A stretch of 64,000 nucleotides of DNA from PVC group bacterium (GTDB lineage: Bacteria > Omnitrophota > Gorgyraeia > B26-G9). Within the stretch, counting starts at the first letter, position 1, and each line of letters begins with the position of its first letter. The position numbers and the translations under genes were made by a program. The notes under the pieces are model-generated. The model saw nothing but the letters and a program-made list of their open reading frames with translations, ran no database searches and was not told where the DNA came from. Below are positions 1 through 58,096 of the stretch, one piece after another. Location of the stretch: positions 22,660 to 86,659 of the forward strand of contig JAAEQR010000003.1 in the NCBI GenBank assembly GCA_024231215.1. The letters are read 5' to 3'.

Positions 1-1
1 A

Positions 2-2773: not shown

Positions 2774-2799
2774 AAGAGCTGTAAATCTCATGATTTTAA

Positions 2800-33020: not shown

Positions 33021-34271
33021 ATGACTGGATATGAAATGCGAAAAATATTAAAAATAACCGGATGTATTTTCCTGTTAGCGGGAGTTTTATGTAATGCGCA
33101 AATTGGGGTTTCTCAAGAAGCGTGTTCTAATAATTTACTATCTCCGCGGCTTTCATTACAGCAGGAACATTTTCTTAGGATTTTTTCTGCAGATAAAATT
33201 CCGGCTATTAGACGGACTACGGATAGTAAAACTACTTATTTACCTGCGGATTATAGTTTGGAGGTAAAGGAAATACTTGTCCAGGTGAATTATTGGGGAA
33301 CTATGGAATATGTGATAGACGAAATACATCAAAAACTTCCGCAAGATATTGCGATGGTTATCATTTTTAATGAACGCATTAAGCCGTATTTAGATTATGC
33401 TAAAAACAAGTTATCTTCTCGAAAAGTAAGATTTATAATGTCTGAAAAAATCAGCGTTTGGGCAAGAGATAATTATATCTATTCTTTTTCTAAAAACAAA
33501 CCGATAATGGTGTTTCCAGACGGAGAGTTGCTGCGTAATATGATAGAATTGACGACAGATAAAAGAGCTATCTATAAACTCGCGAAGAAGTTGAAAATAA
33601 AAATAAAACAGGCAAAGTTTCATTTTACCGCGGGTGATATTATGACGGATGAAGAAAATATATTTGTCGGTGCGGCTACTATGCAGGATAACTTTAATAG
33701 ATATAAAATGTCTTGGAAGGAAACGTCTAAAAAAATGCAGGCTTTATTTGGAAATCCGATAGAAGTTCTGCAATTAGATGTAAATGATATTGATAATGTG
33801 CTTACTCTTTTACCGGGCAAGCGGGCAGTATTGGGTAATAATGAGCAGTTTGATAGTTTTTTAAAGGGCCATTATCATGAAAAAGTTGGTGACATTAAAA
33901 AACGTTTACTGGAGTTAGGATATGCGGTTATTGATATCCCCTGGCGGCCGCATGAAATTGATCATGGCCATGCTGATACGACTACGCTGATCTCTTATAA
34001 TAATGTTGTCTTTTTAGACCGTGATAGAATACTTTTGCCTCAGTATGGAATACCGGCAGATAAGGAAGCCATAATGACTTGGGAGCAATTAGGCTATAAG
34101 GTTATCCCGGTTCAGGCATTTTGTAACGGGGAGCATGGCGGAAGTATTCGTTGTTTTACGAATATTATCAACGCTGATTTTATTAATTATGATTCCGAAG
34201 ATTCTTCTAGAATATTCTGTCCCTCAGTTTCTCTTCAGCCGTTAGAACAATTGATTGAAATGGCTATATAA
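33021..34271 (+). CDS. Tagged-family member 1: exported agmatine/peptidyl-arginine deiminase-like protein (guanidino-group-modifying fold)
   Basis: VWARDNY, FHFTAGDIMTDEENIFVG, HGHADTT and GEHGGSIRCFTN (catalytic Cys context). The leader is followed by LLSPRLSLQ and the C-terminus is QLIEMAI. An alternative start is the ATG at 33036. Confidence 0.75.
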   Translation: MTGYEMRKILKITGCIFLLAGVLCNAQIGVSQEACSNNLLSPRLSLQQEHFLRIFSADKIPAIRRTTDSKTTYLPADYSLEVKEILVQVNYWGTMEYVIDEIHQKLPQDIAMVIIFNERIKPYLDYAKNKLSSRKVRFIMSEKISVWARDNYIYSFSKNKPIMVFPDGELLRNMIELTTDKRAIYKLAKKLKIKIKQAKFHFTAGDIMTDEENIFVGAATMQDNFNRYKMSWKETSKKMQALFGNPIEVLQLDVNDIDNVLTLLPGKRAVLGNNEQFDSFLKGHYHEKVGDIKKRLLELGYAVIDIPWRPHEIDHGHADTTTLISYNNVVFLDRDRILLPQYGIPADKEAIMTWEQLGYKVIPVQAFCNGEHGGSIRCFTNIINADFINYDSEDSSRIFCPSVSLQPLEQLIEMAI

Positions 34272-34372
34272 AGTTCAGAATCCACCCCATTTTTACAAGC
34301 TACTTAAAAAATTGTCAAATCTAAGCCGTAACTAGCTGCGAGTAAAAGGGATATGTAAAACATGTCCTTACC

Positions 34373-34401
34373 TTGACAGAAGTATATACCTATGGTATAC
34401 T
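34373..34401 (+). promoter_or_regulatory. Cluster promoter P2 (CCTTGACA-17 nt-TATACT)
   Basis: TTGACA at 34373-34378 and TATGGTATACTT, with the hexamer at 34396-34401. Confidence 0.7.
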
Positions 34402-34457
34402 TTTGAGTCTTTTTATTTTACCTAATAAAAATATATAAAAAAACAAGGAGATTTGTT

Positions 34458-37400
34458 ATGATTTCAGTATTAAGTCGTAATTTTTTCTTTAGAACAACCG
34501 CAATTATTTTAATTCAAGCATTTTTATTAATAGACATATCGTGGGCCTGTGGTGGGAGGCTTAATGATATTGATGACAGTAAGGTTTTTGAAGATAACTA
34601 CCTTGCTCCTTCCTTAATTATTAATCACTCTGACTTTTCAAGTTATTTTTCTAGTCCAGAAGATATTACTGCGAATCAATTCAGTAGTTTAAGTTCTGCA
34701 GAAATCGAAACCTTAACATATAAACTTGGCCTAACTCTTACCAATGAAAAGCAAGCAGCAAGAGAGATTGAAGAGATTAAGAAAGAACAATTTAAAATAA
34801 TGGATCAGTTTAGTGAAGGGTTAGAGAACAAGGAGCAACGTGAAAAAGCTTTGAATCAGGTAGTAAGAGATACCAATAAAGCGATTGATACTTTAAGGGC
34901 TGATTTTGTTGTGCAGGAGAGGGCAAAAGCTGAGTTAAAAATTAAAGCAGAAGAGTTGAAAATAGAAGCAGAAATTGCAAAGCTAAAATTAGGCAAAGAG
35001 AGAAGAGAAAACTTTGCGAAAGAAGCTCAGCAGGCATATGATCAGGAAATCGCCAAGCTTATTAAAGAAATCAAAGATGCCGCGAAATCAAAAAAAAGAA
35101 AGGCAGAGGAAGAGTATAAGGAACGTGTTAGCAAAATTGAGGAATGTGTTAGCAAAATTAAGGAGGGACTGCTTGAAGGAATATACATATCTGATTCGCT
35201 GGCTCAGGATATTGAAAAAATCAAGCAGGATACAAATGCCAGGATCCAAAAGATAGCTGCGGATATGCGTACTGAGAAGGGCTTTTTAAGCGATACAGTC
35301 AGGGGTATTATTATTGGCGTGTTTAAAATCGCCTGGTATTGGCCAAAAGGTAAGATAGCTGTTTTAAAGATTGAATTGAGCACTCATGAAGGTTATGATC
35401 TTAGCAAGTCTCGTAGTAGATTTAAGGCAGAAGTTAAGGAAATTAATAAATCTGCCAAGGCAGAGATAGAAGCGGTTAGGGACGGAAAAGATAAAAGGAC
35501 ACATAAACTTAAAGAAGAGCTTGATCAGGCTGGTTTAAATATTGAAAAAGATAAAACGAGGCTGGAACAGCTGGAATCAGATAAGAAAAAACAGCCGGAA
35601 ACAATTAGACAAGAAGTAGAAAACGCAATAAAAGAAGCTCAGAAAGATGCAGCTTTAAAAATCCTTAGCGGTCTTCAAGGTGATGAATATGTAGAACTCA
35701 GGCTGAAGGCTTTAGAAACTGTTTTGCCGCTGGTTAAATTATACGAAGACCGCCAGTCAGAAGGCCAGATGGACATGAGAATTGAAAGTAGGGAGGAGTC
35801 CATTGCCGCTTTATTTTTACGCGCGTATCGGGAAGGGCTTAGCGCTATTTCGATTACCGATGCTAAGCAATTACCTTCTCCTGAGGCGGCTAAGGCACAG
35901 CAGATTGTGAACAGACATATCAAGCGTTCTCGAAAGAAAAATGAAGATAAAAGAAAACCGCTGAAATATATTCCGGGAATCGAATTAGTCGTGTCTCTGG
36001 ACGGAGAGAAAGTTCCGGTAATTATCTATCTGCCGGAAAATTCACGTAACTTGGCGAACGATAAGACTGTTCAGGATTTGCTGGCGCGTAGAAGACCGTT
36101 TATGTTACAGGAACTCGCCCATATTTTATACGTATATAACGGAAAGATTGCTTTAGCCGATGCTCATAAATCTCTAAAAGCAGCGCAGATATTTTTTGAA
36201 CGCATGGCGGAATTTGTAATTAAAGGCAGGATCCCGTTGCGGTCCGTATTAGGGGTCGTATATTATGAAGGAACAAAGCAAAAATCTGATGAGCCGGACA
36301 GTCCGGAGAAACAGAAGCTGATGGAGTATATCGCCCGGCTTTGCGTACACCATCCGGTTTATAAACAGAGTGAGCTTTTCTTTCTGCCGGGAACTAATTT
36401 CAGCGGTAGTGTAGATCTGGAAAAGGAAAATATGCTCGGCAGCGGAGCGGATCGTCATCCGCATGAAACGAGTTATCGAGATAGGATTTTAAAGGCAGTA
36501 AATTATAAATCGGGATTATGGGAGAAGATTGTTTATGAATATGAGGGGTTTTTAAAAAACGTTTATATTTGGGGTTTAATGATTACGGCAGGTGTAACGA
36601 TTGTTGGGACACATTCACTTATTTTGGCCGGACTTTTTGCGGTGATGTTCTATTATTTGATTGCGACATATCCTGGATCTAAAAAAAGTGCATTAAAACA
36701 ACAGGTGCAAGTAATTCCCCAGGCAGATATTGCGTCAGAGGAAATGATGAAATACAAAGATTGGAAATTTGATCCGGCTAAAATTCCTCAACCCAAACCA
36801 GAAAGCGAAAAGAGTGCTTCTAAATGGGGAAAAGTGATGGAAACCGCAGGAAATATTTTTGATAAACTGGATATATTAGAAAATCTTTTTTATAGAGCGA
36901 CAGCCGGGACTAAGTATTTTGCCGGCAGTTTGAGAGAGCATTTAAATAAAAATAAGATCACAAATAACTTTTTCAGAAACGATTTGAAGCCCTGGCAAAA
37001 ATGGACTTTCTTTATTTCCAGTTTGACAATAAGCGGAGTATTGGCCGGTTGGTTGGCCGGCAGTGCATGGCTCGGAATTAAAATAGGGGCATTAGTCTGG
37101 GGTATTGCAATAGCGTTAAAGATTTTTGTGTACATAACCGATTGGGATATGGTGCTTTTACTTTTTGGATTTGCTGGTAGTGGGATAGCCGGATGGTTCT
37201 TGGGAAAAGACTACCCGTGGCAAGGAGCTTTTATTGGTCTTACCGGGTGGACGGGTTTTTTAAATAGGAAAGGAATAATATCCTTTTTTAGAGACAGAAT
37301 AAGAAAAGAGATTGATTTTTATAAACGTTTTAGGATGCTTGGGCCCAAGGCTGTTTTTATCCGAAAGACTCTGAAATTACAGCAGGATATGGCTAAGGGA

Positions 37401-38723
37401 ATTGTATATGTGAATATGGTGGGAAAATCGTTTGGCCTGAGAAAAATAGAGGTTGTGAATGTTTTGGCTAAACATGGTTTTGAATATGTAAAGATACAAG
37501 ATGCCAGCACATTGGTATTTGCCAAAAAGGACGTGATGAGAAGGATCGGAGCGGAATTTTTGAAAACAGCTTTAGAAAAATCCGGCACTTCCTGGGAGAA
37601 GATGACCGAGACTTTAAATAAGATCACAGAACATTTTGAAAAAATGCTGGTCGAGGTAACGCTGAGCACAGGGAACGGCAGGACACGTAAAATGTTTATC
37701 CCGGATCCGAGAGAAATTGCCGATGATCAGGTTATGTATAAGCTTTACCGGATTATCGCCATGTACAAGGCACAGGGATTAGTTTTGGAAAATCCCCAAA
37801 CCCGTCTGGTGGTTGATGTAAAAGGAGCGGACGGACAAGTCAGACCAGTTACAGCAAACGAATTGGCCTTAGTTATGAATAAATATTTTGACATTGTAGT
37901 ACCCATGCCGGAGGAGGGAAGTACGCCGGTGAAATCCAGGATTAGTCAGGGGGAGGTAAGGATACTGGAAGCTACCGGACAGCTTAATGAACTTTGGGAA
38001 CAAGGGGTTAAATCTTTAGTTTCGATCAACCTTGGTTCGCAGATCAGAGTGATTGTTGCGGAATTGCTCAAAGATGAAAAAATCGGAACAATTCGGGTAA
38101 CCTCTTATCCGACAGAATTAGGGCGTGACCTGATTGATTTTAGCTCCGAGGCCGGGAAATCGGTAGAAAGTTTGATCAGTGATCAGGCAATATTGGAGGC
38201 GGCGGAAGAGATGGGCTTACTGGAAACGATTGCGCGAGAGTTTAATATGGATAAGGAGAGCGTAACCCCTGAGCATATCGGACTGATCGCTGCCGGGCGA
38301 AATCCTTTTAATCAGGAGCAAGAGTTATACCAGCCTGTAGAGGTTAAAAAGTCGACGATGCATATGGGCAGTAAATATTTTGGCGGAGACACCGGGTCTA
38401 AGCTTGAGCGATTAGAGGCTGTGGCCCAGGAGTTATGGAAAAAGATAGATCGCAAAATAGCGGATTTTATCATCAAGCTGGATGCGGATAGAGCTGCGGA
38501 ACCGGGAAAGACCTCTTATCATCTTAGCGGAGAAACAATGACTTTGGATATCGCTAAGTTAAGAACGGAAAATTTGCGCCGGTTTCTTGAAGAGAAAAAG
38601 GCTGAGCATATCGAATTTTCCTGCGGGGAAGACCCCCTATCGGGAAACGCAATAATCGACCATGATTTAGAGCGGTCTTCTGAGATTACCGAACCTGCTT
38701 TGTTGGTTGAAATGGCGATTTAG
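34458..38723 (+). CDS. Tagged-family member 2: 1421-aa protein with a K/E-rich coiled-coil region and an internal multi-TM block
   Basis: Leader IILIQAFLLIDISWA, YLAPSLIIN box, Lys/Glu-rich heptad-like sequence at about nt 34720-35700, 6-7 hydrophobic helices at about nt 36560-37265, and C-terminus LLVEMAI. Confidence 0.85.
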   Translation: MISVLSRNFFFRTTAIILIQAFLLIDISWACGGRLNDIDDSKVFEDNYLAPSLIINHSDFSSYFSSPEDITANQFSSLSSAEIETLTYKLGLTLTNEKQAAREIEEIKKEQFKIMDQFSEGLENKEQREKALNQVVRDTNKAIDTLRADFVVQERAKAELKIKAEELKIEAEIAKLKLGKERRENFAKEAQQAYDQEIAKLIKEIKDAAKSKKRKAEEEYKERVSKIEECVSKIKEGLLEGIYISDSLAQDIEKIKQDTNARIQKIAADMRTEKGFLSDTVRGIIIGVFKIAWYWPKGKIAVLKIELSTHEGYDLSKSRSRFKAEVKEINKSAKAEIEAVRDGKDKRTHKLKEELDQAGLNIEKDKTRLEQLESDKKKQPETIRQEVENAIKEAQKDAALKILSGLQGDEYVELRLKALETVLPLVKLYEDRQSEGQMDMRIESREESIAALFLRAYREGLSAISITDAKQLPSPEAAKAQQIVNRHIKRSRKKNEDKRKPLKYIPGIELVVSLDGEKVPVIIYLPENSRNLANDKTVQDLLARRRPFMLQELAHILYVYNGKIALADAHKSLKAAQIFFERMAEFVIKGRIPLRSVLGVVYYEGTKQKSDEPDSPEKQKLMEYIARLCVHHPVYKQSELFFLPGTNFSGSVDLEKENMLGSGADRHPHETSYRDRILKAVNYKSGLWEKIVYEYEGFLKNVYIWGLMITAGVTIVGTHSLILAGLFAVMFYYLIATYPGSKKSALKQQVQVIPQADIASEEMMKYKDWKFDPAKIPQPKPESEKSASKWGKVMETAGNIFDKLDILENLFYRATAGTKYFAGSLREHLNKNKITNNFFRNDLKPWQKWTFFISSLTISGVLAGWLAGSAWLGIKIGALVWGIAIALKIFVYITDWDMVLLLFGFAGSGIAGWFLGKDYPWQGAFIGLTGWTGFLNRKGIISFFRDRIRKEIDFYKRFRMLGPKAVFIRKTLKLQQDMAKGIVYVNMVGKSFGLRKIEVVNVLAKHGFEYVKIQDASTLVFAKKDVMRRIGAEFLKTALEKSGTSWEKMTETLNKITEHFEKMLVEVTLSTGNGRTRKMFIPDPREIADDQVMYKLYRIIAMYKAQGLVLENPQTRLVVDVKGADGQVRPVTANELALVMNKYFDIVVPMPEEGSTPVKSRISQGEVRILEATGQLNELWEQGVKSLVSINLGSQIRVIVAELLKDEKIGTIRVTSYPTELGRDLIDFSSEAGKSVESLISDQAILEAAEEMGLLETIAREFNMDKESVTPEHIGLIAAGRNPFNQEQELYQPVEVKKSTMHMGSKYFGGDTGSKLERLEAVAQELWKKIDRKIADFIIKLDADRAAEPGKTSYHLSGETMTLDIAKLRTENLRRFLEEKKAEHIEFSCGEDPLSGNAIIDHDLERSSEITEPALLVEMAI

Positions 38724-38772
38724 CGATAATAGTTTATAACTATCTTAAAATAAATAAGTTACATTCTATCCC

Positions 38773-38801
38773 TTGACGAAGTATGCCTTATATGGTATAC
38801 T
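38773..38801 (+). promoter_or_regulatory. Cluster promoter P3 (CCTTGACG-17 nt-TATACT)
   Basis: TTGACG at 38773-38778 and TATGGTATACTTTAC, with the hexamer at 38796-38801. Confidence 0.7.
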
Positions 38802-38861
38802 TTACTACCTATTTTTAAATAATCCAAACTATAATAATAACCTATTGGGAGAAAACAAGTT

Positions 38862-41800
38862 ATGGGTATCAATAAGAAATACCTATATCTAAGAATTATT
38901 GCATGTATTCTAATACAGGCGGTTTTGTTTGGTAACAGCGGCTTGATCGGAGTAGTGCGCGCAGAAAACTTCCTGTCGCCGGTTTTAGAAATAAATAATA
39001 AGCTGGTTAAGACTTCGTTTGAAACTCCTCAGGTAAAAAGTCGTCGTTTTGTTCATAATCTGGATGATTTATCAAAACTTTCCCGCCGCAAAAGAGATGA
39101 TCTCGAAATAAATGTTCTTAAAAGAATTAGAAATATTAATCTCAAAGGTTTTAATTTTTTATCAAGGGAGGAGCAGGAGAATTTCATTTTTGTTGATTTG
39201 GACTTTGCGGAGTATGTGTTAAAGACTATCTTTACCGATAAGATTAAAGAGGACATGTCTCAGAAGAACGTATCTTATGAAATCATAACAAGGATTATAG
39301 TAGACATGTTTATTCTTTTAAACAAGGTGTTAGAACAACAAGAAGGACAGGATAATACCTATATCGCATGCACTAATTATACTTTTTCTAAAGATAGAAA
39401 AGGACAGACATATGTACTCACGGTTAATTTTGAGAAAAAAGGAGTGGAAGCTAAAATATCAAAATTTATAGCCGAAGAAATTGATGCAGAAATGCCGAAT
39501 ATTGTCTCAGTGTCCGGGCCGATAGAAAAAATCACTGGAAATAAAAGTATAGATGTTAGTTTTTACGGGGTTTCAAAAAATAACAAAGTGCTTACCCCAT
39601 CGGAAATAACCCGAGCAGTGAAGAAGCTGCCGCCGAACGCAGAGAATATAGATATTTCGGAATTAAGAATTGCGCATAAAAGATTACTTAATTTGGCCAG
39701 AGATCGTTACGAAAAACAGGATATTTTAAAAGAAATAACCCCAGCCATAGAGAGGAAAATAAAAACAGGTATTGTTGCGGAAGGGACATCTTCTTTTACC
39801 CCGATTACTGAGAAGGCTTTTGTGGGAAAGATTATTTGCGCGGAAGTGGTAGAAAAAGAGAAAAAGCCGACATATCCTTTAGTTTCATATTATTCGGAAA
39901 CATTGAGGAAAGATCTGAGATTATTAGATAATGCTATAAATACGGCTATGTATAAGTATGAAGGTATAGATATTAATACGGTTCATCATTTTTTGCAGGA
40001 TGCCTTTGCGTTTGCAAGACATGATTCTCGGGAAACACGCAAGGCTCCGACAGCTCAATTTTTATCGCATCTTATGGATGAGCGGAAGGCAGTGCGGGTT
40101 AGAATTCGAAAGGAATTATTGGAGATTATTACATATACGCCGATGTTAAATAAAGACAATGAGCCAAGAGAGATTTCGGAAATCATGGAGGAAGAGCTAG
40201 CTGAGTTAGCGGAACTGCAAGATTACGAAGACAATATGTATATCTGGGGAGAACTGAACAGGCTTAATCAAGAGGATTTGCTATGGGATAACATCATGTC
40301 TCAAGCAAATGAAATTGTGGGTAATATATATCAATATATAGAAGGAGTGGACCCTGAACCTAAAAATGAAAAAGAGCAGATGGCTTTAGATGCGATTGAA
40401 AATGCGAGGAAGGCAGTCCCAACAGATACTCAAATTGGGTCTATGGTCGATACTGTATTACAAGATCTGCCGCGGCAGTTATTTGCCTGGTTAAGAAAAT
40501 ATGATTGTTCTTTACATGAGGCGTTTTTTCGGTCTATGCAACCTATTGTAGACCAGTTAGTTCAAGCTCAAGAACATACGTCGCAAATGAAAGGAGGGCT
40601 TTCTTTAAATCTCCATACCGAACTTTGTACTTTTGTGGATACTGTATTGTTGGAACTGGGAGAGTATGAATCGCGGCATGTAGTGGTACATAATGACTCG
40701 GAGAAGGAGCCATTTATATTATATGTGCCGGGAGACCTAGGAGGGCCGGAGGAATATTTGCGTTTTCGGCGTCTTTATCCGAATATGGTAGGGATTGTAG
40801 TTAAAGAAGGAGCTAAACATTATGCGGTAATGGCCGGAGATCACGGATTCCCGGTGATTAATAAAATTGATTTAATTGAAATGAGCGAAGGAAAATTGCC
40901 GTTAGAGCTGGTGTTAAAAAAGAAAACTAATGGAATTATGCGTATTAGCAGGGGAGGGAAAGCGTTTTTATATATAAACCCTTCATTGAGGGATACCCTT
41001 GAGGCGGAAACTATTATAAAAACAGCGCAGGCAATTAAAATATTGTGTGAAGCTAATATAGATTTAGAAGGAGAAGATGGGAAATTAAAGACGTATGATG
41101 GAGTAGAAGCGCCTGAGATAATGATGAATTTGGATATTGCCGAAGATGCGGAAGACTTGCCGAGCCGGGTAATACGGAAAATAGGTCTTTATCGTACAGA
41201 ATATGAGTATGAACGTCATGGAGAGTTAACAGAAGAAGCATGGTATAAAATTTTTAAGAAAATTGTTAAAGATTCAGAGGGCGATTTTATCGCTGTACGT
41301 TTACCGGATAGAAAAGTATCCGGAGAAGGTGGGGATATAAAAAATCCTAAAGCTTTTGGAAAAAGTAATCTTGAAGGACTTGATTTTTTGCTTGATGAAA
41401 GAGCTAAGGGCAGGCGAATCTCAACGATAATATTAAGGGCCCTTATGAGAGTATATGCAGAAGACGGAGTCGTAGGTGCTCTTTTTCCCATGGTTTCGCA
41501 AGAAAGAGCCGAAGGAATAATCGACTTTGTCGAAGAAATAAAAGAGAATTTAATCTTTGAACAAAAAAATAAAAATAAGCGGGAAGCTTTGGAAGAGGCG
41601 TTAGACAGCTTTTCCGTGGGAGCGATGTTTGAAACTCCTCAGGCTTTTGAATTTAAAAAAGAGCTTATGGAGATTTTTGATTTTGTAAGTTGGGGGAGTA
41701 ATGACTGGAAGATGGCTTCTTCCGGGAAGTCAAGAGGTGCTCAGGGAACGACCAAAGAATTGATTTCATTTACGCCTGAGGTTGTAAAAACCGCATTAGC

Positions 41801-42191
41801 GGCAGGTAAGATGAGCAGGAAGAAGGAAGTACCTTTTTCTATCTGTGGTAAGCTTGCGTCTACCCCTGAATTCATTCTATTTTCACTATATGCAAAGTCG
41901 TTGTCGCTTTTTGATATCCGACTAAGCGTTGGTAAAGATTCTATAGCGTACGTCAAAGAATTTATTCGCCATGTCGATACTAGACGCATTAAAGATATCT
42001 TTAATGATTATCGAAAAGGTTATGATCAGAATAAATTTGATGAGAAAATAGCAGATGAAATAGAAAACATAGTGCTTTCTATGGGAGAATTAGCCAAGCC
42101 TTTTCTACAGGGACAAGTTAAGATGTCGTTACAGAAGAAAAGGGGGCAGGCATCGAAGGCTCCTGTGTTAGTGCATGAGTATGCAATATAA
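38862..42191 (+). CDS. Tagged-family member 3: 1109-aa protein whose C-terminal half resembles PEP-utilising enzymes (swivel His-domain plus TIM barrel, PtsI/PPDK-like)
   Basis: GAKHYAVMAGDHGFPVI (compare GGxTSHAAIxARxxGIPAV), GLYRTEYEY (compare GLFRTEFL), LFPMVS, VGAMFETPQAF, FVSWGSNDW (compare SIGTNDL) and FSICGKLAS (compare CGEMAG). Leader ILIQAVLF, FLSPVLEIN box, C-terminus LVHEYAI. Confidence 0.8.
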   Translation: MGINKKYLYLRIIACILIQAVLFGNSGLIGVVRAENFLSPVLEINNKLVKTSFETPQVKSRRFVHNLDDLSKLSRRKRDDLEINVLKRIRNINLKGFNFLSREEQENFIFVDLDFAEYVLKTIFTDKIKEDMSQKNVSYEIITRIIVDMFILLNKVLEQQEGQDNTYIACTNYTFSKDRKGQTYVLTVNFEKKGVEAKISKFIAEEIDAEMPNIVSVSGPIEKITGNKSIDVSFYGVSKNNKVLTPSEITRAVKKLPPNAENIDISELRIAHKRLLNLARDRYEKQDILKEITPAIERKIKTGIVAEGTSSFTPITEKAFVGKIICAEVVEKEKKPTYPLVSYYSETLRKDLRLLDNAINTAMYKYEGIDINTVHHFLQDAFAFARHDSRETRKAPTAQFLSHLMDERKAVRVRIRKELLEIITYTPMLNKDNEPREISEIMEEELAELAELQDYEDNMYIWGELNRLNQEDLLWDNIMSQANEIVGNIYQYIEGVDPEPKNEKEQMALDAIENARKAVPTDTQIGSMVDTVLQDLPRQLFAWLRKYDCSLHEAFFRSMQPIVDQLVQAQEHTSQMKGGLSLNLHTELCTFVDTVLLELGEYESRHVVVHNDSEKEPFILYVPGDLGGPEEYLRFRRLYPNMVGIVVKEGAKHYAVMAGDHGFPVINKIDLIEMSEGKLPLELVLKKKTNGIMRISRGGKAFLYINPSLRDTLEAETIIKTAQAIKILCEANIDLEGEDGKLKTYDGVEAPEIMMNLDIAEDAEDLPSRVIRKIGLYRTEYEYERHGELTEEAWYKIFKKIVKDSEGDFIAVRLPDRKVSGEGGDIKNPKAFGKSNLEGLDFLLDERAKGRRISTIILRALMRVYAEDGVVGALFPMVSQERAEGIIDFVEEIKENLIFEQKNKNKREALEEALDSFSVGAMFETPQAFEFKKELMEIFDFVSWGSNDWKMASSGKSRGAQGTTKELISFTPEVVKTALAAGKMSRKKEVPFSICGKLASTPEFILFSLYAKSLSLFDIRLSVGKDSIAYVKEFIRHVDTRRIKDIFNDYRKGYDQNKFDEKIADEIENIVLSMGELAKPFLQGQVKMSLQKKRGQASKAPVLVHEYAI

Positions 42192-42202
42192 AAGAGGATA
42201 TT

Positions 42203-44296
42203 ATGGGATTTTCTGGTAAAAAAAGATCGGGCAAATCAATATCTTCACGAATTATCACCCTGATAATTCTACAGATCTTTTTTGTCTCAGGATTGTTGTC
42301 CCTAGGCAATAGCTTTGCTGCGGATACTCACCAAACCTGCCTTTCTCCCCGTGTAAATATATCTAATGCGCTAGTCAAAAATTCTTTTAGTACCTTTAAA
42401 AAGCTTAATTTAAATGATTTGTTTGAAGGATTTGCAGAGGGTATTCTAGACATCGATAAGGTAGATCACTGGTTAGTTGGTCGCAATGAATCTATCGCTT
42501 ATGAGTTTAAAACAGATTTAGTTCCTAAAATTGTACAACAACCCAATGCAAAATGGTTTTTAGAACAAATACTTGCAGAAGATAAACTTAAGCCATTACA
42601 TTTTGAAGCCCAAGCTGTTCTTTTGCAGATACGTTTTAAAGAGCTTGGATATCCTAACCATAACCCAGCCTGGAGACATTTTATATCTTCGATGAAAGAA
42701 GGGCTTCAATTCCTGGAAAACCCTGAAAACTTAGAGAATAAGGATGTAGTTATCGGCACTTGTCATGTGGCTGCGGATTCGGATTCTGTGGCTGCGGCAA
42801 TTACGTGGTATGAACGGGAAAGAATGTTAGCAGAGAATCGAGGAAAGGTTTTTATTCCTTTGATCTCTAATGAGGACAGGGATATAAATCTTGAAACAGA
42901 GAGACAATTGCATATTTGTGGGATAATAGCAGAGGATCTGATATACGCTTTTCCTAGTAAAGAGATGGAGAAAAGAGGCGAGGTTAAAAGCCTGATACAG
43001 CAGAAACTTGAGGCTATTGCTAAAACAAAATATAAGAGTAGAATAAAAATTGATTTGCTCGATCATAATGCGGTACAGGTTGACTGGTTAAAACCTTTTA
43101 AAGTACGTAAGATATATGATCATCATAACCCGGAAGTGGATATGCCGGAATTGGCCCCGGGAAATGATTATGTCCGCATTGAAGCCTCCACGACAACCAT
43201 AATTGCTCAGGAAAACATGAAAGATCGTATTTTCCATAGATCATTTCCACAGATAAAGTTTTTGACTATGGCTACCTTGCTTTCAGATACAGACTGTTTA
43301 AATTCAGATATTACACAGCAAGAAACTCTCGGGATTTTATCTCGGATGGCAAAGGATATGGGTTTTTTAAAAAAAGTGCAGTTAAATGGCGGCATAGGCT
43401 CTAGTGGTAAGATTGATTTTGAAAAAATGGAACGCTATTTTGAAATCATAGTTGATAGGGTTTATCTGAACCGGCATTCTTATGTAGAGGAATGGCTGAG
43501 GGATTGTAAGACATATAATGGGTTTGAATTCGGCCAGTCAAAAGTTATATCTTGGGAAGAGTTGTCTGAGAAAAAAGAAATGGAATTAATCGAAGGCATG
43601 AGAAATAAACTTAATGAAAACGATGACAATGAAGCTATTGTTTGGATGGTATCTTCAATGAATCCGTCTGAGTATGGCAGTAAATTTTATGCAATATGTA
43701 AAGATGACCCAGATGGGGCTAAGGCAGAACAGATTATTAGCCAGGTGATGTATCAAAGTCCGGTAAGGATCGGGCTGGTGCGGTCGATATATGTGAATCC
43801 GGCAATACATGCGTACCAGAAAGACTCTCCGGTGAATCCAGTGAGAGTTTTGAATAGAGCTTATAGACAATTTGATCTTAATCTGGATAGATCAACCAAG
43901 AAACAGATGATGGAAAAGATAAGCAATTTGATACAAGATTATGGAAGTAGATTGAAAAGGGATTTGGTTTATAGATATTATTCGTATGAAATAACCAGTG
44001 ATATAATTGAATTTCTGGAGTCAAAAGGCATATCCTGGATACATGCGGAAGTAATGAAGCCGGAAAAAATATATATCGAGGAAATAGGATTAAAAAACGA
44101 AAGAACGCGCAGGGTTCAAATGCCTGGATTTGCTTCCCGGAAGAATATAAAAAATGAGGTTGAAGGCGCAGTCGCGGAAATCATCAGAATAAATAAAGCT
44201 GAGAGGACATTGCGTTTGAACCTCCGCAATGAAATTATGGGCGCTGATGCTGCTTTTGGAATTCAAGCAAAAGAGTTAGTCTTACAGGCTATTTGA
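42203..44296 (+). CDS. Tagged-family member 4: DHH-family phosphoesterase-like protein (family II pyrophosphatase / nanoRNase-type motifs)
   Basis: CHVAADSDSVAAA (DxD), LLDHNAV, IYDHHNP (DHH) and TLLSDTDCL motifs. Leader IILQIFFV, CLSPRVNIS box, C-terminus ELVLQAI. The start is 11 nt after the previous stop. Confidence 0.8.
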   Translation: MGFSGKKRSGKSISSRIITLIILQIFFVSGLLSLGNSFAADTHQTCLSPRVNISNALVKNSFSTFKKLNLNDLFEGFAEGILDIDKVDHWLVGRNESIAYEFKTDLVPKIVQQPNAKWFLEQILAEDKLKPLHFEAQAVLLQIRFKELGYPNHNPAWRHFISSMKEGLQFLENPENLENKDVVIGTCHVAADSDSVAAAITWYERERMLAENRGKVFIPLISNEDRDINLETERQLHICGIIAEDLIYAFPSKEMEKRGEVKSLIQQKLEAIAKTKYKSRIKIDLLDHNAVQVDWLKPFKVRKIYDHHNPEVDMPELAPGNDYVRIEASTTTIIAQENMKDRIFHRSFPQIKFLTMATLLSDTDCLNSDITQQETLGILSRMAKDMGFLKKVQLNGGIGSSGKIDFEKMERYFEIIVDRVYLNRHSYVEEWLRDCKTYNGFEFGQSKVISWEELSEKKEMELIEGMRNKLNENDDNEAIVWMVSSMNPSEYGSKFYAICKDDPDGAKAEQIISQVMYQSPVRIGLVRSIYVNPAIHAYQKDSPVNPVRVLNRAYRQFDLNLDRSTKKQMMEKISNLIQDYGSRLKRDLVYRYYSYEITSDIIEFLESKGISWIHAEVMKPEKIYIEEIGLKNERTRRVQMPGFASRKNIKNEVEGAVAEIIRINKAERTLRLNLRNEIMGADAAFGIQAKELVLQAI

Positions 44297-44379
44297 TCAA
44301 TTTGTACCCAGTCGTAAACCCGCCGCAAAATTTATTTCTAACCATCTGAAAATAAAAGACTTAAAAATCTCGCCAGACC

Positions 44380-44408
44380 TTGACAGGTTGTATTTCATAT
44401 GGTATACT
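44380..44408 (+). promoter_or_regulatory. Cluster promoter P4 (CCTTGACA-17 nt-TATACT)
   Basis: TTGACA at 44380-44385 and ATATGGTATACTTTACC, with the hexamer at 44403-44408. A GC hairpin gggccg/cggccc (44436-44456) lies in the leader. Confidence 0.7.
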
Positions 44409-44480
44409 TTACCGCTTTTATAATAATTAATGTAGGGGCCGCGCTCGGCTCGGCCCGAATAGTCTATAGAAGAGGTAAAT

Positions 44481-46349
44481 ATGCTATCCAAACGAATAAT
44501 AAAAGTTGTTGCAGTTGTTATTATCCAGATGTTTTTATTTATGGATTTTGCCTGGGCAGCGGATTGTCTAAGTCCTTCTTTGAATTTTAGCGGAACTCAA
44601 TTTTCCTCTCATTACAATATTATTTCTGAGGCAATTAAGATTTTTGAAGAATTAGAAGGAGCTCAGGAACAATTTGTTATCAAATCAGGTGATAATTATT
44701 TTTACGTTTATAATCCTAATAATGCTTCAAAAACATTATTAACAAATGCAGAAGTTATTATTAATAATGAAGACGTAGCAGTTGCTTTATTGGGTGATTT
44801 TAAATACCAGAAGACAGAAAAGAAGCTAGTAGAGCCGGTGAAAAATGTAAATATTATTACGGATTTATATTCAGTTCAGCAATGGCGTTCAATATTTGAA
44901 ATGATTATTCACGGGGTTGGTCCGAATAAACCAGGATATTCTCGGGACTATATCCCGCATGTCAAACGATGGTTTAGGCTTCTTTTTAAACAGATAACTG
45001 GGGTAGAGCCTCCAGCTGAAGCTGTTTATTTTTTCGAGGCAGTATATGCGGATGTTGTTACTAGCCGGGTTAATCCTATGGTAAAAAAATACAATAAAGA
45101 AGAAGAGCGTTATGGGGTGCGTGAAATAGAATTAACTCAAAAGGCGATAGGTAATTTTGCGGCAACGCCCTACGCATACATGGATGCAGGTGTTAGAGAA
45201 GAGATGTATAAAAAATTAGATGCGGTTTTAGCAGAGATAGTAGAGATAGCTCTAGCTCAAGGAGCGACTGGCGATTGGCCGACAGCATTAAATGCAATAA
45301 TGCACAGCCAGGGAACGGTCACCGGAACTGAATGGATCCAGGACCGATTAGAAAAAGGAATGTGGCCGGATGTATTGCAGACAGATAAAATAATATTAAT
45401 TGGTGGGGTGTTATGGCTCAAATCAATTCTTAGAAGCAGACCTTTAAGTGATCCTTTAAGAGTTCAAAAATTTGGAGGAATGATTGTAAATATTAAAGAC
45501 CCGCAAGATGCAATTGGAAGATTTTTAAGGCTATTGAGCCCTGAATTTGCGGATGCGATATTTGCTGATGGGTATCTTAATGTGGGAAGTTTTTTAAACC
45601 CATTATCACATACAATTGCTTCTCATACTAAGTATTGGAATAGTCGTAGAATCGCTAAAATCAAGGCAATGATGCTTGTATTTAGCGCATTAAGGCAGAA
45701 TCCCGCGTGGTTAACCAAATACGGACGCAAGTCTTTAGATATTAATGCAGCAGAAACTGAATTCAGAAGAGATCTTCTAAAATTACTTAGAAGTGACTTA
45801 TCCTCCTTGCCCCAGCATGATCCGGAACTTATTGGGCCGGGGTATAAATTTGTGTCTAATGATGAGAATGAGGCTACGGGAGGTATCTTTGTTTTAAATG
45901 AAGCGGCTGAAAAAATTGGATTTTATGCGGACAATAAAACAGTTGCTGCAAATAATGATATCATTGAGCCGATCAAAGCAAAAGTTAAATTTACAAAAAA
46001 TCTTACAGCTAAAGTAGAAGAGTTAAATAAAATCACTCCGGATAGAGCAAATAACCAGGGGTATATGATGATTAATTCTTTGAATCAGGAAGCGGCGAAT
46101 CAAATTAGAGACAAAATTAAAGAAATCAGTTTATTTGTAGAACAGTTTCAGGGTGCAGATACACGGGAGCTTGCTGTACGGATTAAGGAAGTGCAGGATT
46201 TAGCTAGACAGAATATGGACATTTCTAAATTAGATGAAATTAAAGTAAAAATGCAGAATTTGCTTAGTACTACTATAAAGTCAATTGAAGTTTGTAAGCC
46301 TGCTTCAGGGCAGAGTTCAATTATTGCTGCAATCAGTATATCAATATAA
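44481..46349 (+). CDS. Tagged-family member 5: 622-aa protein of unknown function
   Basis: Leader VVIIQMFLFMDFAWA, CLSPSLNFS box, C-terminus IAAISISI. I recognised no catalytic motif. Confidence 0.8.
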   Translation: MLSKRIIKVVAVVIIQMFLFMDFAWAADCLSPSLNFSGTQFSSHYNIISEAIKIFEELEGAQEQFVIKSGDNYFYVYNPNNASKTLLTNAEVIINNEDVAVALLGDFKYQKTEKKLVEPVKNVNIITDLYSVQQWRSIFEMIIHGVGPNKPGYSRDYIPHVKRWFRLLFKQITGVEPPAEAVYFFEAVYADVVTSRVNPMVKKYNKEEERYGVREIELTQKAIGNFAATPYAYMDAGVREEMYKKLDAVLAEIVEIALAQGATGDWPTALNAIMHSQGTVTGTEWIQDRLEKGMWPDVLQTDKIILIGGVLWLKSILRSRPLSDPLRVQKFGGMIVNIKDPQDAIGRFLRLLSPEFADAIFADGYLNVGSFLNPLSHTIASHTKYWNSRRIAKIKAMMLVFSALRQNPAWLTKYGRKSLDINAAETEFRRDLLKLLRSDLSSLPQHDPELIGPGYKFVSNDENEATGGIFVLNEAAEKIGFYADNKTVAANNDIIEPIKAKVKFTKNLTAKVEELNKITPDRANNQGYMMINSLNQEAANQIRDKIKEISLFVEQFQGADTRELAVRIKEVQDLARQNMDISKLDEIKVKMQNLLSTTIKSIEVCKPASGQSSIIAAISISI

Positions 46350-46363
46350 AGGAAGGTAAAAAT

Positions 46364-49183
46364 ATGTTATCTAAGAGATTCGTAAAAATTATTTCAATTG
46401 TAATCATTCAGGCATTTTTGGTTTTGGACTTTGCCTGGGCCATGGGGCCTGATGCCAGATTTTTTGATGCCGGAGCACAGGAATATCTTGCTCCGACATT
46501 AACTATTAACAGCGCGCCGATTCAGGCAACTTTGCAAAATATGATGGCGCGTGAGAAATCACTTCAGGATGTTATTGATTTTGGCAAAGAAGAAAAAACA
46601 GAATTCTTTGCCGGGTTATCTAAAGAAGAAAAAATAAAACAGCTTGAACAATGGATGGCTGCGTCTTTTGAAGGCGGCGGACCCAAAGGCGCTTATGAAG
46701 CAGGGATTGGACAACTGTTTATGGAGTCATGGATGCATTTGAAAAACCAGGGCAAGGAAGATGTTACCGGGTTTGATGTTATCGGGGGTAACTCCGCAGG
46801 TGCAATTAATGCTTTGTTTTTTAGTTTAGCAATAATGTATGATCCGACTTTTGTTAAATATAATGAAATTACCTGGGTAAAACATTTAAATTTAAAGAAT
46901 TTATTAGAACCGGGCCAAAATTATAATCCTAAGAACGCAGTTTTTTCCAGCCAAATAATAGATCGCGCAATAAAAGCCATAGAGCAAAAGTTGGAAGAGT
47001 GTAAGAATAACGACAAGACTCTTTCTTATGCTCCGGAAGAGATAAGAGTTGTTTTTTCAGTAACCAATCTTAGTGGAACTCCTTATTGGGATGAAGTGAA
47101 GAATCTTCTGGATGGTAAAAAAGGTATTAGATATGACCACCAGGGGAAAATCCATTTTACAATTAAAAAGAAAGACCGCTACAGTCCTGAGACTATGGAA
47201 ATGCTTACATTGATGATGAAAGTTGCGGTAGCTTCAGCATCAATTCCAATTGTTTTTGAAGCGCGAAAAATAGCTCAGTCAGTTAGAGCTTATCCTGGCA
47301 GCATTTTGGCAAACATGGCTGTGAAAGCCGGGAAATGGCTTACCGAAAAAATCACATCAATTTTTGTCGATGGAATGCTTGTAGACAACAAGGCGATAAA
47401 AACAGTAGCAAAGCTAGCTAGGAAGAAGGATATTGAAGAGGGAATGCTGAACAGCAATTTGCGCAATAGATTGCAAGTGGCTATTTCACCGAATGTAATA
47501 GATGATACCGAAGGAGAAAGATTTGATAAACAGGATATCCCTTCTGTTGCTATGAAGAGCCTTAGTGCGGTTATGGCGCAAGTTCTTTATCAGAATGAAA
47601 AGATTGATGAGATAAATAAGAAAAACACGCTGATTACGCATTTCATACAGGATATACAGAAACAGGCTGAAAAAGTAAAGCGTTATAAATGGAGTAAGAA
47701 GCGACTAAAGCAGGAGATTGATGAGTTATTATTCGGATCAAGTTACAGTCTTATTAAACGCAAAAGTGAAAATAGAGCCAAAAGACACATTCTAAAGGAA
47801 ACAGGAAAAGAAGTGGAATATGAAGCGACCAAGGATGAAGTAGCCTGGTATATAAAAAGAAATAAAGAACGTGTAATCAGGCAGCGTTTGCTGGCCAACG
47901 GAATTATTACCGAAGCACAGCTTAACAGTCAGGATGAACGGGATAAATTGTTTATTGATTACTTGGCACTTTTTACGTTTGTCGAGGAATGCGGTCGTGA
48001 TTTAAGAGGCAGGGAAGAAGTATACGTACATCAGATTGCGCCAACTAAGCATCCTTTGGCATCTGATCTCTTGCTCGGGTTTTTGAGTGAGGATGTCAGG
48101 CAGGCTGATTTTAATCAGGGATATGAAGATGCACGATTGGCATTGGAGGCGCTTTTAGGTGTGGATCTTTCTGGTTTGCGCCGGCAGGAATCGGTTCAGC
48201 AGACGGAAGGTTATCAGTTTGCTTATAGCAATGTTTCTTTGACAGAAAGAAAAGAAATAGTAAATATGCTTATTGCCAGAGCAAAACTTATTGTTAAAAC
48301 TATCTTAAGCAAAAAACATTCGTCCTTGGTGGGTAAAATATTCGCTCAGCCGGGGATTGTGGGAAGAAATATTCTGCTTAGTGGTGCTTTAATATTTGTT
48401 AAAAAAATGCTGGCAAAACAATTTCATATTCCTCAGGATGAAAAAAATGCTAAAGCAAGAAGAGTCGAGTCTTTAAAGCTAAATATGCGTAATAATATTT
48501 TATATAAAGAGAATGAACTTTATAATTTAAAGGAAACAAAAGCAAGGCTGGAGCAAATAGCTAATTCTAAGAAGCCGGTTGCAGTTATTGTAGGTAGTGA
48601 TTTAGAAACTTCATTTGAGGCAATGTCTGTGATTAGTAGGTATAGAAAAGATATTACTATTCTTAAAGCACCACATGGAGAGACCCCTGGACAAGCTTTG
48701 CGAACAAGTTATACAAAAGGAAAAGAGACTATTGATTTACATAAATCTACCCAATATAACAGAGATGTTATTTTAAAAACTTTTATTTTAAATTCAGGAA
48801 TTTTAATTAGTACTAAAAAGATGCTGGATAAATATTCTCGAATTGGAGGTAATTACAAAATTACAGAATTGGGGGAAAAAGCAGAAGCCGAGTGGGCAAC
48901 AATTATTAATAATAAAGAACATATAATTATATTGGGAGAGACCCCGGAACAATTAAAACCGATATTAAAGGATAAGGATGTATTAGAAATAGAGACAGCA
49001 AAGCATAGGAAGGCTTTGAATAGAAAAATCCCCTTTGTCGGCAGGAATGTTTGGGAGAAATATTTTGGCAAAGATAAGCAAGCTAAAACACGTAATTTAC
49101 TGGACCTTCGTTATGTACCTAGTTTTGGTGGATATAAACAACCATTGATGATGCATAATAATCTGGTGAATATAGCAATTTAA
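46364..49183 (+). CDS. Tagged-family member 6: 939-aa patatin-like phospholipase with a long C-terminal extension
   Basis: FEGGGPKGAYEAG (oxyanion GGGxxG), GGNSAGA (GxSxG) and VDGMLVDN (catalytic Asp region). Leader VIIQAFLVLDFAWA, YLAPTLTIN box, C-terminus NLVNIAI. Confidence 0.85.
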   Translation: MLSKRFVKIISIVIIQAFLVLDFAWAMGPDARFFDAGAQEYLAPTLTINSAPIQATLQNMMAREKSLQDVIDFGKEEKTEFFAGLSKEEKIKQLEQWMAASFEGGGPKGAYEAGIGQLFMESWMHLKNQGKEDVTGFDVIGGNSAGAINALFFSLAIMYDPTFVKYNEITWVKHLNLKNLLEPGQNYNPKNAVFSSQIIDRAIKAIEQKLEECKNNDKTLSYAPEEIRVVFSVTNLSGTPYWDEVKNLLDGKKGIRYDHQGKIHFTIKKKDRYSPETMEMLTLMMKVAVASASIPIVFEARKIAQSVRAYPGSILANMAVKAGKWLTEKITSIFVDGMLVDNKAIKTVAKLARKKDIEEGMLNSNLRNRLQVAISPNVIDDTEGERFDKQDIPSVAMKSLSAVMAQVLYQNEKIDEINKKNTLITHFIQDIQKQAEKVKRYKWSKKRLKQEIDELLFGSSYSLIKRKSENRAKRHILKETGKEVEYEATKDEVAWYIKRNKERVIRQRLLANGIITEAQLNSQDERDKLFIDYLALFTFVEECGRDLRGREEVYVHQIAPTKHPLASDLLLGFLSEDVRQADFNQGYEDARLALEALLGVDLSGLRRQESVQQTEGYQFAYSNVSLTERKEIVNMLIARAKLIVKTILSKKHSSLVGKIFAQPGIVGRNILLSGALIFVKKMLAKQFHIPQDEKNAKARRVESLKLNMRNNILYKENELYNLKETKARLEQIANSKKPVAVIVGSDLETSFEAMSVISRYRKDITILKAPHGETPGQALRTSYTKGKETIDLHKSTQYNRDVILKTFILNSGILISTKKMLDKYSRIGGNYKITELGEKAEAEWATIINNKEHIIILGETPEQLKPILKDKDVLEIETAKHRKALNRKIPFVGRNVWEKYFGKDKQAKTRNLLDLRYVPSFGGYKQPLMMHNNLVNIAI

Positions 49184-49215
49184 GTGACAAGTTACGAGTG
49201 ACAGGTGAGAAGTTA
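49184..49215 (+). repeat. Short tandem AGTGACARGT-type motif block immediately after the stop codon
   Basis: GTGACAAGTTAC (49184-49195), GTGACAGGTGAG (49198-49209) and AAGTTA (49210-49215). A related block occurs at 60734-60778. Confidence 0.4.
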
Positions 49216-49217
49216 AT

Positions 49218-49255
49218 GCCCCCCTTCCGGGAATATCCGGGAGGGGGTTTTTGTT
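49218..49255 (+). terminator. Strong intrinsic terminator
   Basis: GC-rich stem ccccccttccgg / ccgggaggggg (about 11 bp) followed by tttttgtttt. Confidence 0.9.
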
Positions 49256-49380
49256 TTGTACTCGTATAGTTTGGCAATCATCCATCGCTATGTGGCGCTT
49301 AAGCCGCAGCGCATCTTTAACTCTCTGCGAATAAAACACTTAAATCTTCCATTTTTTTATAATAAAATCCCTTCTAGCTA

Positions 49381-49409
49381 TTGAAAAAAGCCAAATCATA
49401 TGGTATACT
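49381..49409 (+). promoter_or_regulatory. Cluster promoter P5 (TTGAAA-17 nt-TATACT)
   Basis: TTGAAA at 49381-49386 and ATATGGTATACTTTACC, with the hexamer at 49404-49409. Confidence 0.65.
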
Positions 49410-49475
49410 TTACCGATTTTATTTATCATTTTTTAGCAACTTTTTAAAGTGTATTTAAGAAAGAAGGAGTTTTTT

Positions 49476-55019: not shown

Positions 55020-55048
55020 TTGGTGAATGGTTGATCGTGAATAGTTTT

Positions 55049-55070
55049 TGGGCCGGTTGAGACCGGCCCA
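55049..55070. other. GC-rich hairpin (tgggccggt / accggccca) without a downstream U-tract
   Basis: 9-bp stem with a tgag loop, flanked by T5 upstream and A3 downstream. It lies between the giant gene and the next family member. Confidence 0.4.
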
Positions 55071-55088
55071 AACTGATATATAATTAAT

Positions 55089-56639: not shown

Positions 56640-56667
56640 TTAATATTTATAGGAAAAAAATTAAATT

Positions 56668-57936: not shown

Positions 57937-58013
57937 CTCCATAACTTTACGCCTTCCAATAAATATCAATTGCAACCAATTGTAAATAAATAGCTTACAG
58001 AAATAGACCTGCC

Positions 58014-58042: not shown

Positions 58043-58096
58043 TTAAAACCATTTTTAATGTGTAATTTATTGGGATAATTTGAGTTATGAATTTTA

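Follow-up and report, generated by a model that had tools for sequence, protein, structure and literature searches.

The nearest described relatives of the protein considered here are Enzyme I (EI, PtsI) of the phosphoenolpyruvate (PEP)-dependent phosphotransferase system (PTS) and EI-Ntr (PtsP), an EI paralogue that carries an N-terminal GAF sensor, has a role outside sugar transport, is cytoplasmic, and possesses neither a leader nor terminal tags. Signals at both ends of a protein are known from T9SS (type IX secretion system) cargo, which combines a Sec signal peptide with a C-terminal Ig-like domain (CTD) of 70-100 aa. Both comparisons are needed for a 64,000-nt stretch (hereafter the window) from a member of the Omnitrophota, a widespread group of ultra-small, uncultured bacteria that are suspected of living off other cells. 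In this window (PVC group bacterium, assembly GCA_024231215.1, contig JAAEQR010000003.1, positions 22,660 to 86,659), we describe an EI-like gene whose product retains the active-site residues of EI and shares a leader, an N-terminal motif and a C-terminal tail with ten other proteins encoded in the window.

Omnitrophota have been reported as ultra-small bacteria that show predatory or parasitic traits (PMC10066038). The giant proteins of the phylum ('Archaeovorins') carry PEP-utiliser modules that have been described at the Pfam level only, as 'pyruvate-diphosphate kinase domains' (West-Roberts et al., bioRxiv 10.1101/2023.11.21.568195), and the glycolytic domains and those of pyruvate phosphate dikinase (PPDK) type in these giants are predicted to be extracellular (bioRxiv 10.1101/2023.11.21.568195; 10.64898/2026.06.07.730766). 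That Omnitrophota giants contain PEP-utiliser domains is therefore already known, as is the paradox that metabolic enzymes are predicted to lie outside the cell. The locus described here is a compact, testable form of that published puzzle of cytoplasmic-type enzymes predicted outside the cell, with genes that stand alone, are of ordinary size and have a common leader and tail, one of them with an intact Enzyme-I active site.

An Enzyme I-like catalytic half in a small protein family

The EI-like protein matches, at 100%, the metagenome-assembled genome (MAG) protein GY853_00295 at NCBI, annotated 'hypothetical protein [PVC group bacterium]' and encoded on a contig of 104 kb. The gene and its predicted parts are as follows.

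38862..42191, plus strand: EI-like gene, an open reading frame (ORF) with an ATG start, 1109 aa, coordinates including the stop
38862..38963, plus strand: predicted Sec-type leader, aa 1-34
38973..38993, plus strand: N-terminal tag motif LSPVLEI, aa 38-44, family pattern L[SA]PxLxI
39069..39761, plus strand: family-specific N-terminal domain, aa ~70-300
39768..39854, plus strand: putative beta-hairpin strands, aa 303-331
39894..40655, plus strand: large helical region, aa 345-598
40674..40976, plus strand: predicted phospho-histidine (swivel) domain, aa 605-705, with the His653 codon at 40818-40820 in G-A-K-H-Y
41091..41978, plus strand: PEP-binding TIM barrel, aa 744-1039, with the C995 codon at 41844-41846
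41979..42167, plus strand: C-terminal helical extension, aa 1040-1102, starting after the family motif VKEFIRH.D
42168..42188, plus strand: C-terminal tag LVHEYAI-COOH, family pattern L-V/I-x-E/Q-x-A-I

The initial annotation had recognised a PEP-utilising module in the C-terminal half from six signature strings, all of which we found in the right order at nt 40809-41861: GAKHYAV (aa 650-656, nt 40809-40829), GLYRTEYEY (aa 775-783), LFPMVS (aa 874-879), MFETPQ (aa 922-927), WGSNDW (aa 944-949) and ICGKLAS (aa 994-1000, nt 41841-41861). Pfam, NCBIfam, profile alignment and fold agree that this half is a genuine PEP-utilising module and place it closer to PtsI than to PPDK or PEP synthase. Specifically, PEP-utilizers_C (PF02896) matched aa 744-1039 at E=2.2e-23 in Pfam, EI chains were the only matches in a PDB sequence search, and the highest NCBIfam scores were those of PtsP and PtsI at 61 bits (alignments running from aa 642 or 690 to ~1045-1050, with PtsP the top match at aa 642-1050), followed by PEP synthase at 39 bits and PPDK at 13 bits. 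The equivalog cut-offs were not reached (61.4 vs 341.7 bits for TIGR01417; 46.7 vs 824 bits for PRK11177). Aligning a profile of five family members with E. coli PtsI in hhalign gave a probability of 99.8% (E=7.6e-29) over EI 157-546, a span that takes in the phospho-His domain, linker and barrel, and paired H653 with His189, R778 with R296, R813 with R332, E924 with E431, N947/D948 with N454/D455, R958 with R465 and C995 with C502. The phospho-His domain is seen solely in the profile-profile and structural alignments and has the motif G-A-K-H-Y, not G-G-x-T-S-H. AlphaFold2, run with the family alignment, gave a model of mean pLDDT 74.6 in which the barrel lay mostly at 85-95.

When 1.84 billion representatives were searched exhaustively with HMMER, 12 had E<1e-30. 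The long tail that followed consisted of ordinary EI proteins, and the best matches outside the family were EI-length proteins. A word-indexed homologue search found the protein itself only and, with the family profile, three ordinary EI, PtsP and PEP-synthase proteins in addition. Four homologues (P0002, P0006, P0007 and P0010) are full-length at 1049-1145 aa and align from ~aa 74 to ~1080, which means that the whole architecture is conserved and not the catalytic half alone; P0003 and P0004 are fragments ended by contig ends. Scanning for related loci, with one genome per species and the alignment trimmed to the catalytic half, yielded nine (L numbers below); the label is Candidatus Omnitrophota for six of them, Elusimicrobiota for one and uncultured Planctomycetia for two. 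The family is small, and most of its occurrences are in MAGs of Omnitrophota. Two of the loci hold the module of this family inside giants, namely an ORF of more than 4812 aa at L005 (51-14486) that also encodes an N-acetylmuramoyl-L-alanine amidase and one of more than 3879 aa at L007 (2027-13663) with a methyltransferase and tetratricopeptide repeats (TPR). More distant PEP-utiliser modules occur in the giants P0015 and P0017, the latter (5098 aa) having two, the second of which is directly fused to PTS-HPr (PF00381, E=1.3e-12).

The initial annotation had suggested checking the phospho-acceptor His and catalytic Cys for the losses expected of a pseudo-enzyme, and both proved to be conserved, H653 in 10 of 10 and C995 in 10 of 10 family members. 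R778, R813, E924, N947, D948 and R958 were likewise invariant or nearly so (8/8 to 11/11 members). Because the His, the Cys and the Arg/Glu/Asn/Asp set are kept across the family, the protein does not appear to be a pseudo-enzyme, and the residues retained indicate that the gene product is apparently a catalytically competent EI-type PEP-dependent phosphotransferase. A decayed EI copy, or a wrongly assigned start codon that creates a false leader, would account for the undetected PF00391 and for scores far under the NCBIfam equivalog cut-offs. Such an explanation is highly improbable given that the catalytic residues are invariant, that the ORF is intact with a ribosome-binding site and a promoter-like site, and that the protein sequences of orthologues in other MAGs keep the leader and tail; this conservation among orthologues largely refutes it.

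The gene immediately downstream bears on a further alternative.

42203..44296, plus strand: tagged DHH-family phosphoesterase, 697 aa, the next gene, 11 nt downstream

The DHH gene is probably co-transcribed with the EI-like gene, and its product matched DHH at E=1.2e-4 and the NCBIfam family II pyrophosphatase at 2.6e-7, both below cut-off. If the EI-like protein were a dikinase of PEP synthase or PPDK type, its N-terminal domain would bind nucleotide, it would interconvert pyruvate and PEP, and the DHH/pyrophosphatase-like protein would pull the reaction. This idea draws on the close spacing and weak pyrophosphatase match of the DHH neighbour and on the 'pyruvate-diphosphate kinase domains' that West-Roberts et al. 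describe in Archaeovorins (bioRxiv 10.1101/2023.11.21.568195), but the NCBIfam order given above (EI 61, PEP synthase 39, PPDK 13 bits) and the EI length of the best non-family matches run counter to it, and the DHH gene is not kept beside the homologues in L002 and L008. We consider a dikinase improbable. A functional coupling of the EI-like and DHH proteins was rejected on the same ground, as the pairing is absent from both of those loci, and the ATP-grasp domain PF01326 had no match in the EI-like protein.

A family-wide N-terminal half

The region upstream of the catalytic half had been annotated as a novel N-terminal region of ~600 aa. Its novelty held insofar as aa 1-640 contain no recognised motif, but it is not one block and it is conserved family-wide. 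Searches with aa 1-640 gave no Pfam, NCBIfam or PDB sequence match (DUF7337 at E=0.13 in Pfam being noise), nor did the N-terminal 640 aa give a PDB profile match, an hhalign signal to EI 1-260 or a Foldseek match at E<=0.001. The first of its parts, aa ~70-300, is modelled as five helices, a beta-beta-alpha-beta-beta unit and further helices, with R76, R78, E82, N93, D112, N172, T183 and R282 conserved. No relative of it was detectable, and a local ACT-like match at E=0.29 was the only structural hint. The family alignment shows no conserved His in this domain, which makes an HPr-like acceptor in cis unlikely.

The strands at aa 303-331 are ordered and packed with aa 605-705 in the full model and disordered in a model of aa 66-602, which suggests that they form part of the swivel alpha/beta domain, much as EI residues 1-20 do. 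By sequence, these residues could not be equated with the EI N-terminal hairpin (GILASPGIAFGKA), as z was ~0 for the target and reached 3.9 in P0007 only. The region at aa 345-598 is helical, occupies the position of the HPr-binding insert of EI and contains a conserved motif, S..EA.FRA.QP, at aa 550-561. Taken together, the models hint weakly at an EI topology of hairpin, helical insert (aa 345-598) and rest of the His domain (aa 605-705). With its new N-terminal domain and enlarged helical insert, the family widens the known PEP-utilising architectures.

A leader and a tail shared by unrelated proteins

The N-terminus had been read as an export tag, and this was borne out in part: the leader has every formal characteristic of a Sec signal peptide, but it is not generic, being one part of a lineage-specific two-ended tag on 11 ORFs of the window. 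In the EI-like protein it consists of an n-region, MGINKKYLYLR (net +4), and a 12-residue hydrophobic core, IIACILIQAVLF, with possible cleavage by signal peptidase I at VRA|EN, after residue 34, and it includes the only strongly hydrophobic segment of the protein (~aa 6-32). Across 15 leaders, the n-region had a net charge of +2 to +6 and the core a Kyte-Doolittle value of 2.4-3.4, followed by a neutral or negative stretch, and small-x-small sites took the forms AWA|, VWA|, AFA| and VRA|. The charge distribution in all 15 predicts an inside N-terminus with the bulk of the protein outside. A core motif, I-x-I-Q-A-F/V-L, is common to the target, the 10 other window ORFs and the homologues P0002, P0006 and P0010. 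Other leader types were considered and set aside: Tat signals, as KK, KR or a single R occur with no consistent RR and the cores are too hydrophobic; lipoprotein leaders, as the leader alignment has no lipobox; and type IV pilin-like leaders, as it has no G|F-T-L-x-E pattern.

Each of the 11 ORFs has a leader (basic, then I-x-I-Q-A-F-L, then x-W-A), a variable spacer, the motif L[SA]PxLxI and a C-terminal tail. The leader and tail alignments place them as follows.

15252-16244: eleventh tagged ORF, apart from the block
33021..60730, plus strand: block of ten consecutive tagged ORFs, starting at the positions below
33021: PAD_porph-like
34458: 1421 aa
38862: EI-like
42203: DHH
44481: tagged ORF
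46364: patatin
49449: 1856 aa
55089: tagged ORF
56668: tagged ORF
58097: TPR

In the alignment of the 11 leaders, the Pro of L[SA]PxLxI was invariant and the Leu nearly so, and when the 47 window ORFs of 100 aa or more were searched with a regular expression for the motif, it matched the 11 tagged ones and no others. The tail was present on 11 of 11 leader-bearing ORFs, in the forms SLVEYAI, QLIEMAI, LLVEMAI, VLVHEYAI, ELVLQAI, NLVNIAI, ELIGMAI, SFVESAI, LLEQAV, LVEQGV and AISISI, and none of the 23 other large window ORFs had either element. Counting the window together with the nine loci, both ends were present on 18 ORFs and absent from 98, with 5 carrying just the leader and 1 just the tail (Fisher p=4e-16); of those 5, 2 are genuine tagged proteins whose tails are variants.

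The tags recur beyond the window. All four full-length homologues (P0002, P0006, P0007 and P0010) share the leader and tail of the target, and among the 150 best PEP-utiliser relatives tags were seen on members of the EI-like family only. The target homologues in L002 and L008 sit in like clusters of tagged genes, and at these loci an S-adenosylmethionine (SAM) methyltransferase and an HATPase_c ATPase protein bear both tags. At L002, a glutamate dehydrogenase of the Glu/Leu/Phe/Val type (1-2898, minus strand) bears the leader; the retrieved locus stops short of its C-terminus. The intervals with tagged genes are as follows.

L002, 2912-11515: tagged cluster
L008, 3542-11662: tagged cluster
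L009, 135-3356: tagged interval

Neither tag has a Pfam or NCBIfam model, a search with the 11-leader alignment found no match at database scale, and the literature that we searched on Omnitrophota contains no description of the tags or of the EI-like family. As far as we have checked, then, the two-ended tag on cofactor-dependent enzymes is undescribed, and it is the most interesting lead of the window. We also considered that the tags might be junction remnants of fused giants and rejected this, as the giants hold no internal leader motifs. Separately, P0101, P0026 and P0124 form a more distant subfamily of long PEP-utilisers with the His motif G-T-P-I/L-S-H and tails of the type ...AISA, and the N-terminus of P0101 is leader-like (KLISTVILILFLYNNLLWALAPE); from this leader and these tails, the tagging of PEP-utilisers may be wider than one family.

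Where the tagged enzyme may act

The reading that we favour, with a probability of roughly 45%, is that the EI-like protein is exported as an active phosphotransferase of EI type and does its work where there is PEP, inside a host or prey cell. Another cell's cytoplasm is suggested as the site of action because the leader predicts export while the tagged set needs PEP, SAM, ATP and NAD(P). Under such a mechanism, the leader would see the protein through the cytoplasmic membrane, and the tags at its two ends would route it onward along with the rest of the tagged set (patatin, arginine-deiminase-like, DHH and others), to act inside the host or prey as one of the effector battery of a host-dependent nanobacterium. 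There, PEP would phosphorylate H653 in the barrel active site with release of pyruvate, C995 serving as proton donor, and the swivel domain would hand the phosphoryl group on to an acceptor that the N-terminal half (the helical region and the aa 70-300 domain) binds. By analogy with EI-HPr, and given the EI-HPr fusion in P0017, this acceptor is more likely to be a protein. An effector role also fits the mix of patatin lipase, deiminase and phosphoesterase and the predatory or parasitic lifestyle proposed for Omnitrophota.

As for the tags themselves, we tentatively propose that leader, L[SA]PxLxI and LVExAI tail form an undescribed address code of Omnitrophota, by which many cofactor-dependent enzymes of different folds would be labelled for a dedicated pathway of export and delivery or of surface assembly. 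Should the code be one of delivery into a host or prey of the nanobacterium, the tagged EI-like enzyme might be the first PEP-driven phosphotransferase effector, a step that we regard as equally doubtful. The consequences would be considerable, as the host or prey would have its PEP pool drained or rewired, or its proteins phosphorylated, PEP-dependent phosphotransfer in the victim's cytoplasm would be a new effector chemistry, and the tags would offer a sequence handle for listing the effector set of a whole phylum.

Several observations weigh against this reading of an exported enzyme active in another cell. Within the catalytic half, the counterpart of EI R358 has no confident placement in the hhalign alignment, Pfam found no match to the mobile His domain PF00391 even at E<=10, and the HPr-binding subdomain PF05524 had no Pfam match in the protein either. 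No HPr-like domain was found in the EI-like protein or its neighbours, no secretion or injection machinery was identifiable in the window (a TraF_2/PorP-like barrel being the sole candidate), and export itself is predicted from a heuristic assessment of signal-peptide features. We know of no precedent for a PEP-dependent secreted effector. Finally, the giant at L005 points the other way: its amidase (aa 2120-2242) and its EI-like module (~aa 2760-3680) have exactly one hydropathy-predicted transmembrane (TM) segment between them by a crude hydropathy threshold, so that the two would lie on opposite membrane faces and the module, one TM segment from a peptidoglycan amidase that must be outside, on the cytoplasmic one.

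This topology clue, like the tagging of enzymes that use PEP, SAM, ATP and NAD(P), which is most simply explained if they are kept in a cytoplasm, favours a membrane-anchored EI paralogue that faces the cytoplasm of its producer, where it would use the cell's own PEP in a regulatory or metabolic phosphorelay like that of EI-Ntr. The hydrophobic segment would then be an uncleaved anchor or a signal for internal assembly, and the tags would dock enzymes into a membrane complex, like the giants. EI-like modules do occur in giants with many TM segments, one of them fused to HPr, and 46% of long Omnitrophota proteins have been classed as TM-only with a cytoplasmic bulk (10.64898/2026.06.07.730766). 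Were the tags docking peptides or anchors of this kind, they would help to explain how giant multi-enzyme proteins relate to ordinary genes. The leaders themselves speak against anchoring, since all 15 have the charge distribution of an inside N-terminus and an outside bulk, typical signal-peptidase sites follow a short core of 12 residues, and in most paralogues this core falls short of the usual length of a stable TM anchor; the single TM segment at L005, for its part, was counted with the crude threshold already mentioned. On balance, anchoring seems to us unlikely, though it has the most to recommend it among the competing explanations.

The same leader features would suit a protein that is exported and then kept in the envelope or on the surface of its producer, where free PEP is not used and the protein instead transfers phosphoryl groups in another way, binds pyruvate or a PEP-like ligand, or has a structural or adhesive role. 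That a TPR protein and large coiled-coil/TM proteins bear the same tags would agree with this, as would the glycolytic and PPDK-type domains of Omnitrophota giants that the literature predicts to be extracellular. An invariant PEP/Mg site, a proton-donor Cys and a phospho-His are, by contrast, hard to explain without PEP or pyruvate chemistry, and we know of no source of PEP outside a cytoplasm. Retention in the envelope is, in our judgement, unlikely as well, and an exported phosphotransferase acting inside a host or prey cell remains the reading that we prefer.

Gene neighbourhood and upstream signals

Two sequence signals precede the EI-like gene.

38773..38801, plus strand: promoter-like site TTGACG-17-(TG)TATACT, a consensus match only, upstream of the EI-like gene
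38847..38851, plus strand: Shine-Dalgarno-like GGGAG, 10 nt 5' of the ATG, read from the sequence

The near-consensus extended -10 pattern also stands before the tagged ORFs at 34458 (34373-34401) and 44481 (44380-44408). The three sites (34373-34401, 38773-38801 and 44380-44408) are near-identical, with the form TTGAC[AG]-17-(TG)TATACT, and each is intergenic and 5' of a tagged gene, which suggests that the tagged block comprises separate but similar transcription units; in total, promoter-like sites in the region were not above shuffled expectation.

Directly upstream of the tagged block lie two genes, one for a sigma-54 activator (29851-30852; AAA+ and HTH_8), a candidate regulator, and one for a TraF_2-type outer-membrane barrel (31353-32825), which had a PorP_SprF match at E=1.6e-4, just below cut-off, and is a candidate outer-membrane partner. 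Within the block, the tagged protein of 1421 aa (34458-38723) has a long, Lys/Glu-rich, coiled-coil-like N-terminal region and several hydrophobic, TM-like stretches mid-protein, and matched no Pfam family. The window also encodes a second patatin, without tags, which is fused to an Omp85-type barrel (25925-28153, 742 aa, signal peptide) and resembles the PlpD-like type Vd secreted lipase. A dual-specificity/tyrosine-phosphatase-like gene (PTP-NADK / Y_phosphatase2; 14470-15078, minus strand), just before the tagged ORF at 15252, is the only sizeable minus-strand gene of the window. GC content ranges from 34 to 42%, GC skew is positive in all 2-kb bins (0.13-0.32) and nearly all genes are on the plus strand; from this uniform skew and gene orientation, the window appears to lie wholly on one replication arm.

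Comparison with known systems

With regard to the tags only, and by analogy, the locus resembles T9SS cargo in that unrelated enzymes carry a signal at each end and a PorP/SprF- or TraF_2-like barrel is encoded upstream. It differs in that the tail has ~6-7 residues, an extra N-terminal motif is present and the lineage is PVC/Omnitrophota, not Bacteroidota. A T9SS-type CTD was rejected, as only the last 6-7 residues are common to the tagged proteins and no Pfam/NCBIfam CTD model matched, and no T9SS components were seen beyond the near-match of the PorP/SprF-like barrel. The Omnitrophota giants ('Archaeovorins'; West-Roberts et al., bioRxiv 10.1101/2023.11.21.568195) belong to the same phylum and share PEP-utiliser modules with the target, which is unlike them in being a stand-alone protein of 1109 aa that has a leader and tail of its own; no internal leader motif occurs in the giants.

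Among PEP-utilising enzymes, the superfamily to which the target belongs, PEP synthase and PPDK differ from the target, which lacks their ATP-grasp nucleotide-binding domain and gives lower sequence scores against them. EI-Ntr is similar in adding an extra N-terminal domain to an EI core, but no GAF domain was detected in the target by Pfam, and the target has the leader and tags. A strict PtsI is distinguished from it by the PF05524 match that the target lacks, by the equivalog cut-offs that the target does not reach and by the absence of PTS genes nearby (no HPr or EII domains were found among the scanned window ORFs). Still, the PTS Enzyme I (PtsI; E. coli b2416; PDB 2hwg, 2wqd, 6vu0) provided the best sequence, profile and fold matches, with which the target shares the TIM barrel, the linker helix, a phospho-His domain as predicted from the profile-profile and structural alignments, and counterparts of all of H189, R296, R332, E431, N454, D455, R465 and C502. 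Set against these likenesses are an identity of 19-24%, a helical insert of ~250 aa compared with ~120 in EI, and the addition of a ~230-aa N-terminal domain, a C-terminal helical extension, a Sec-like leader and the terminal tags.

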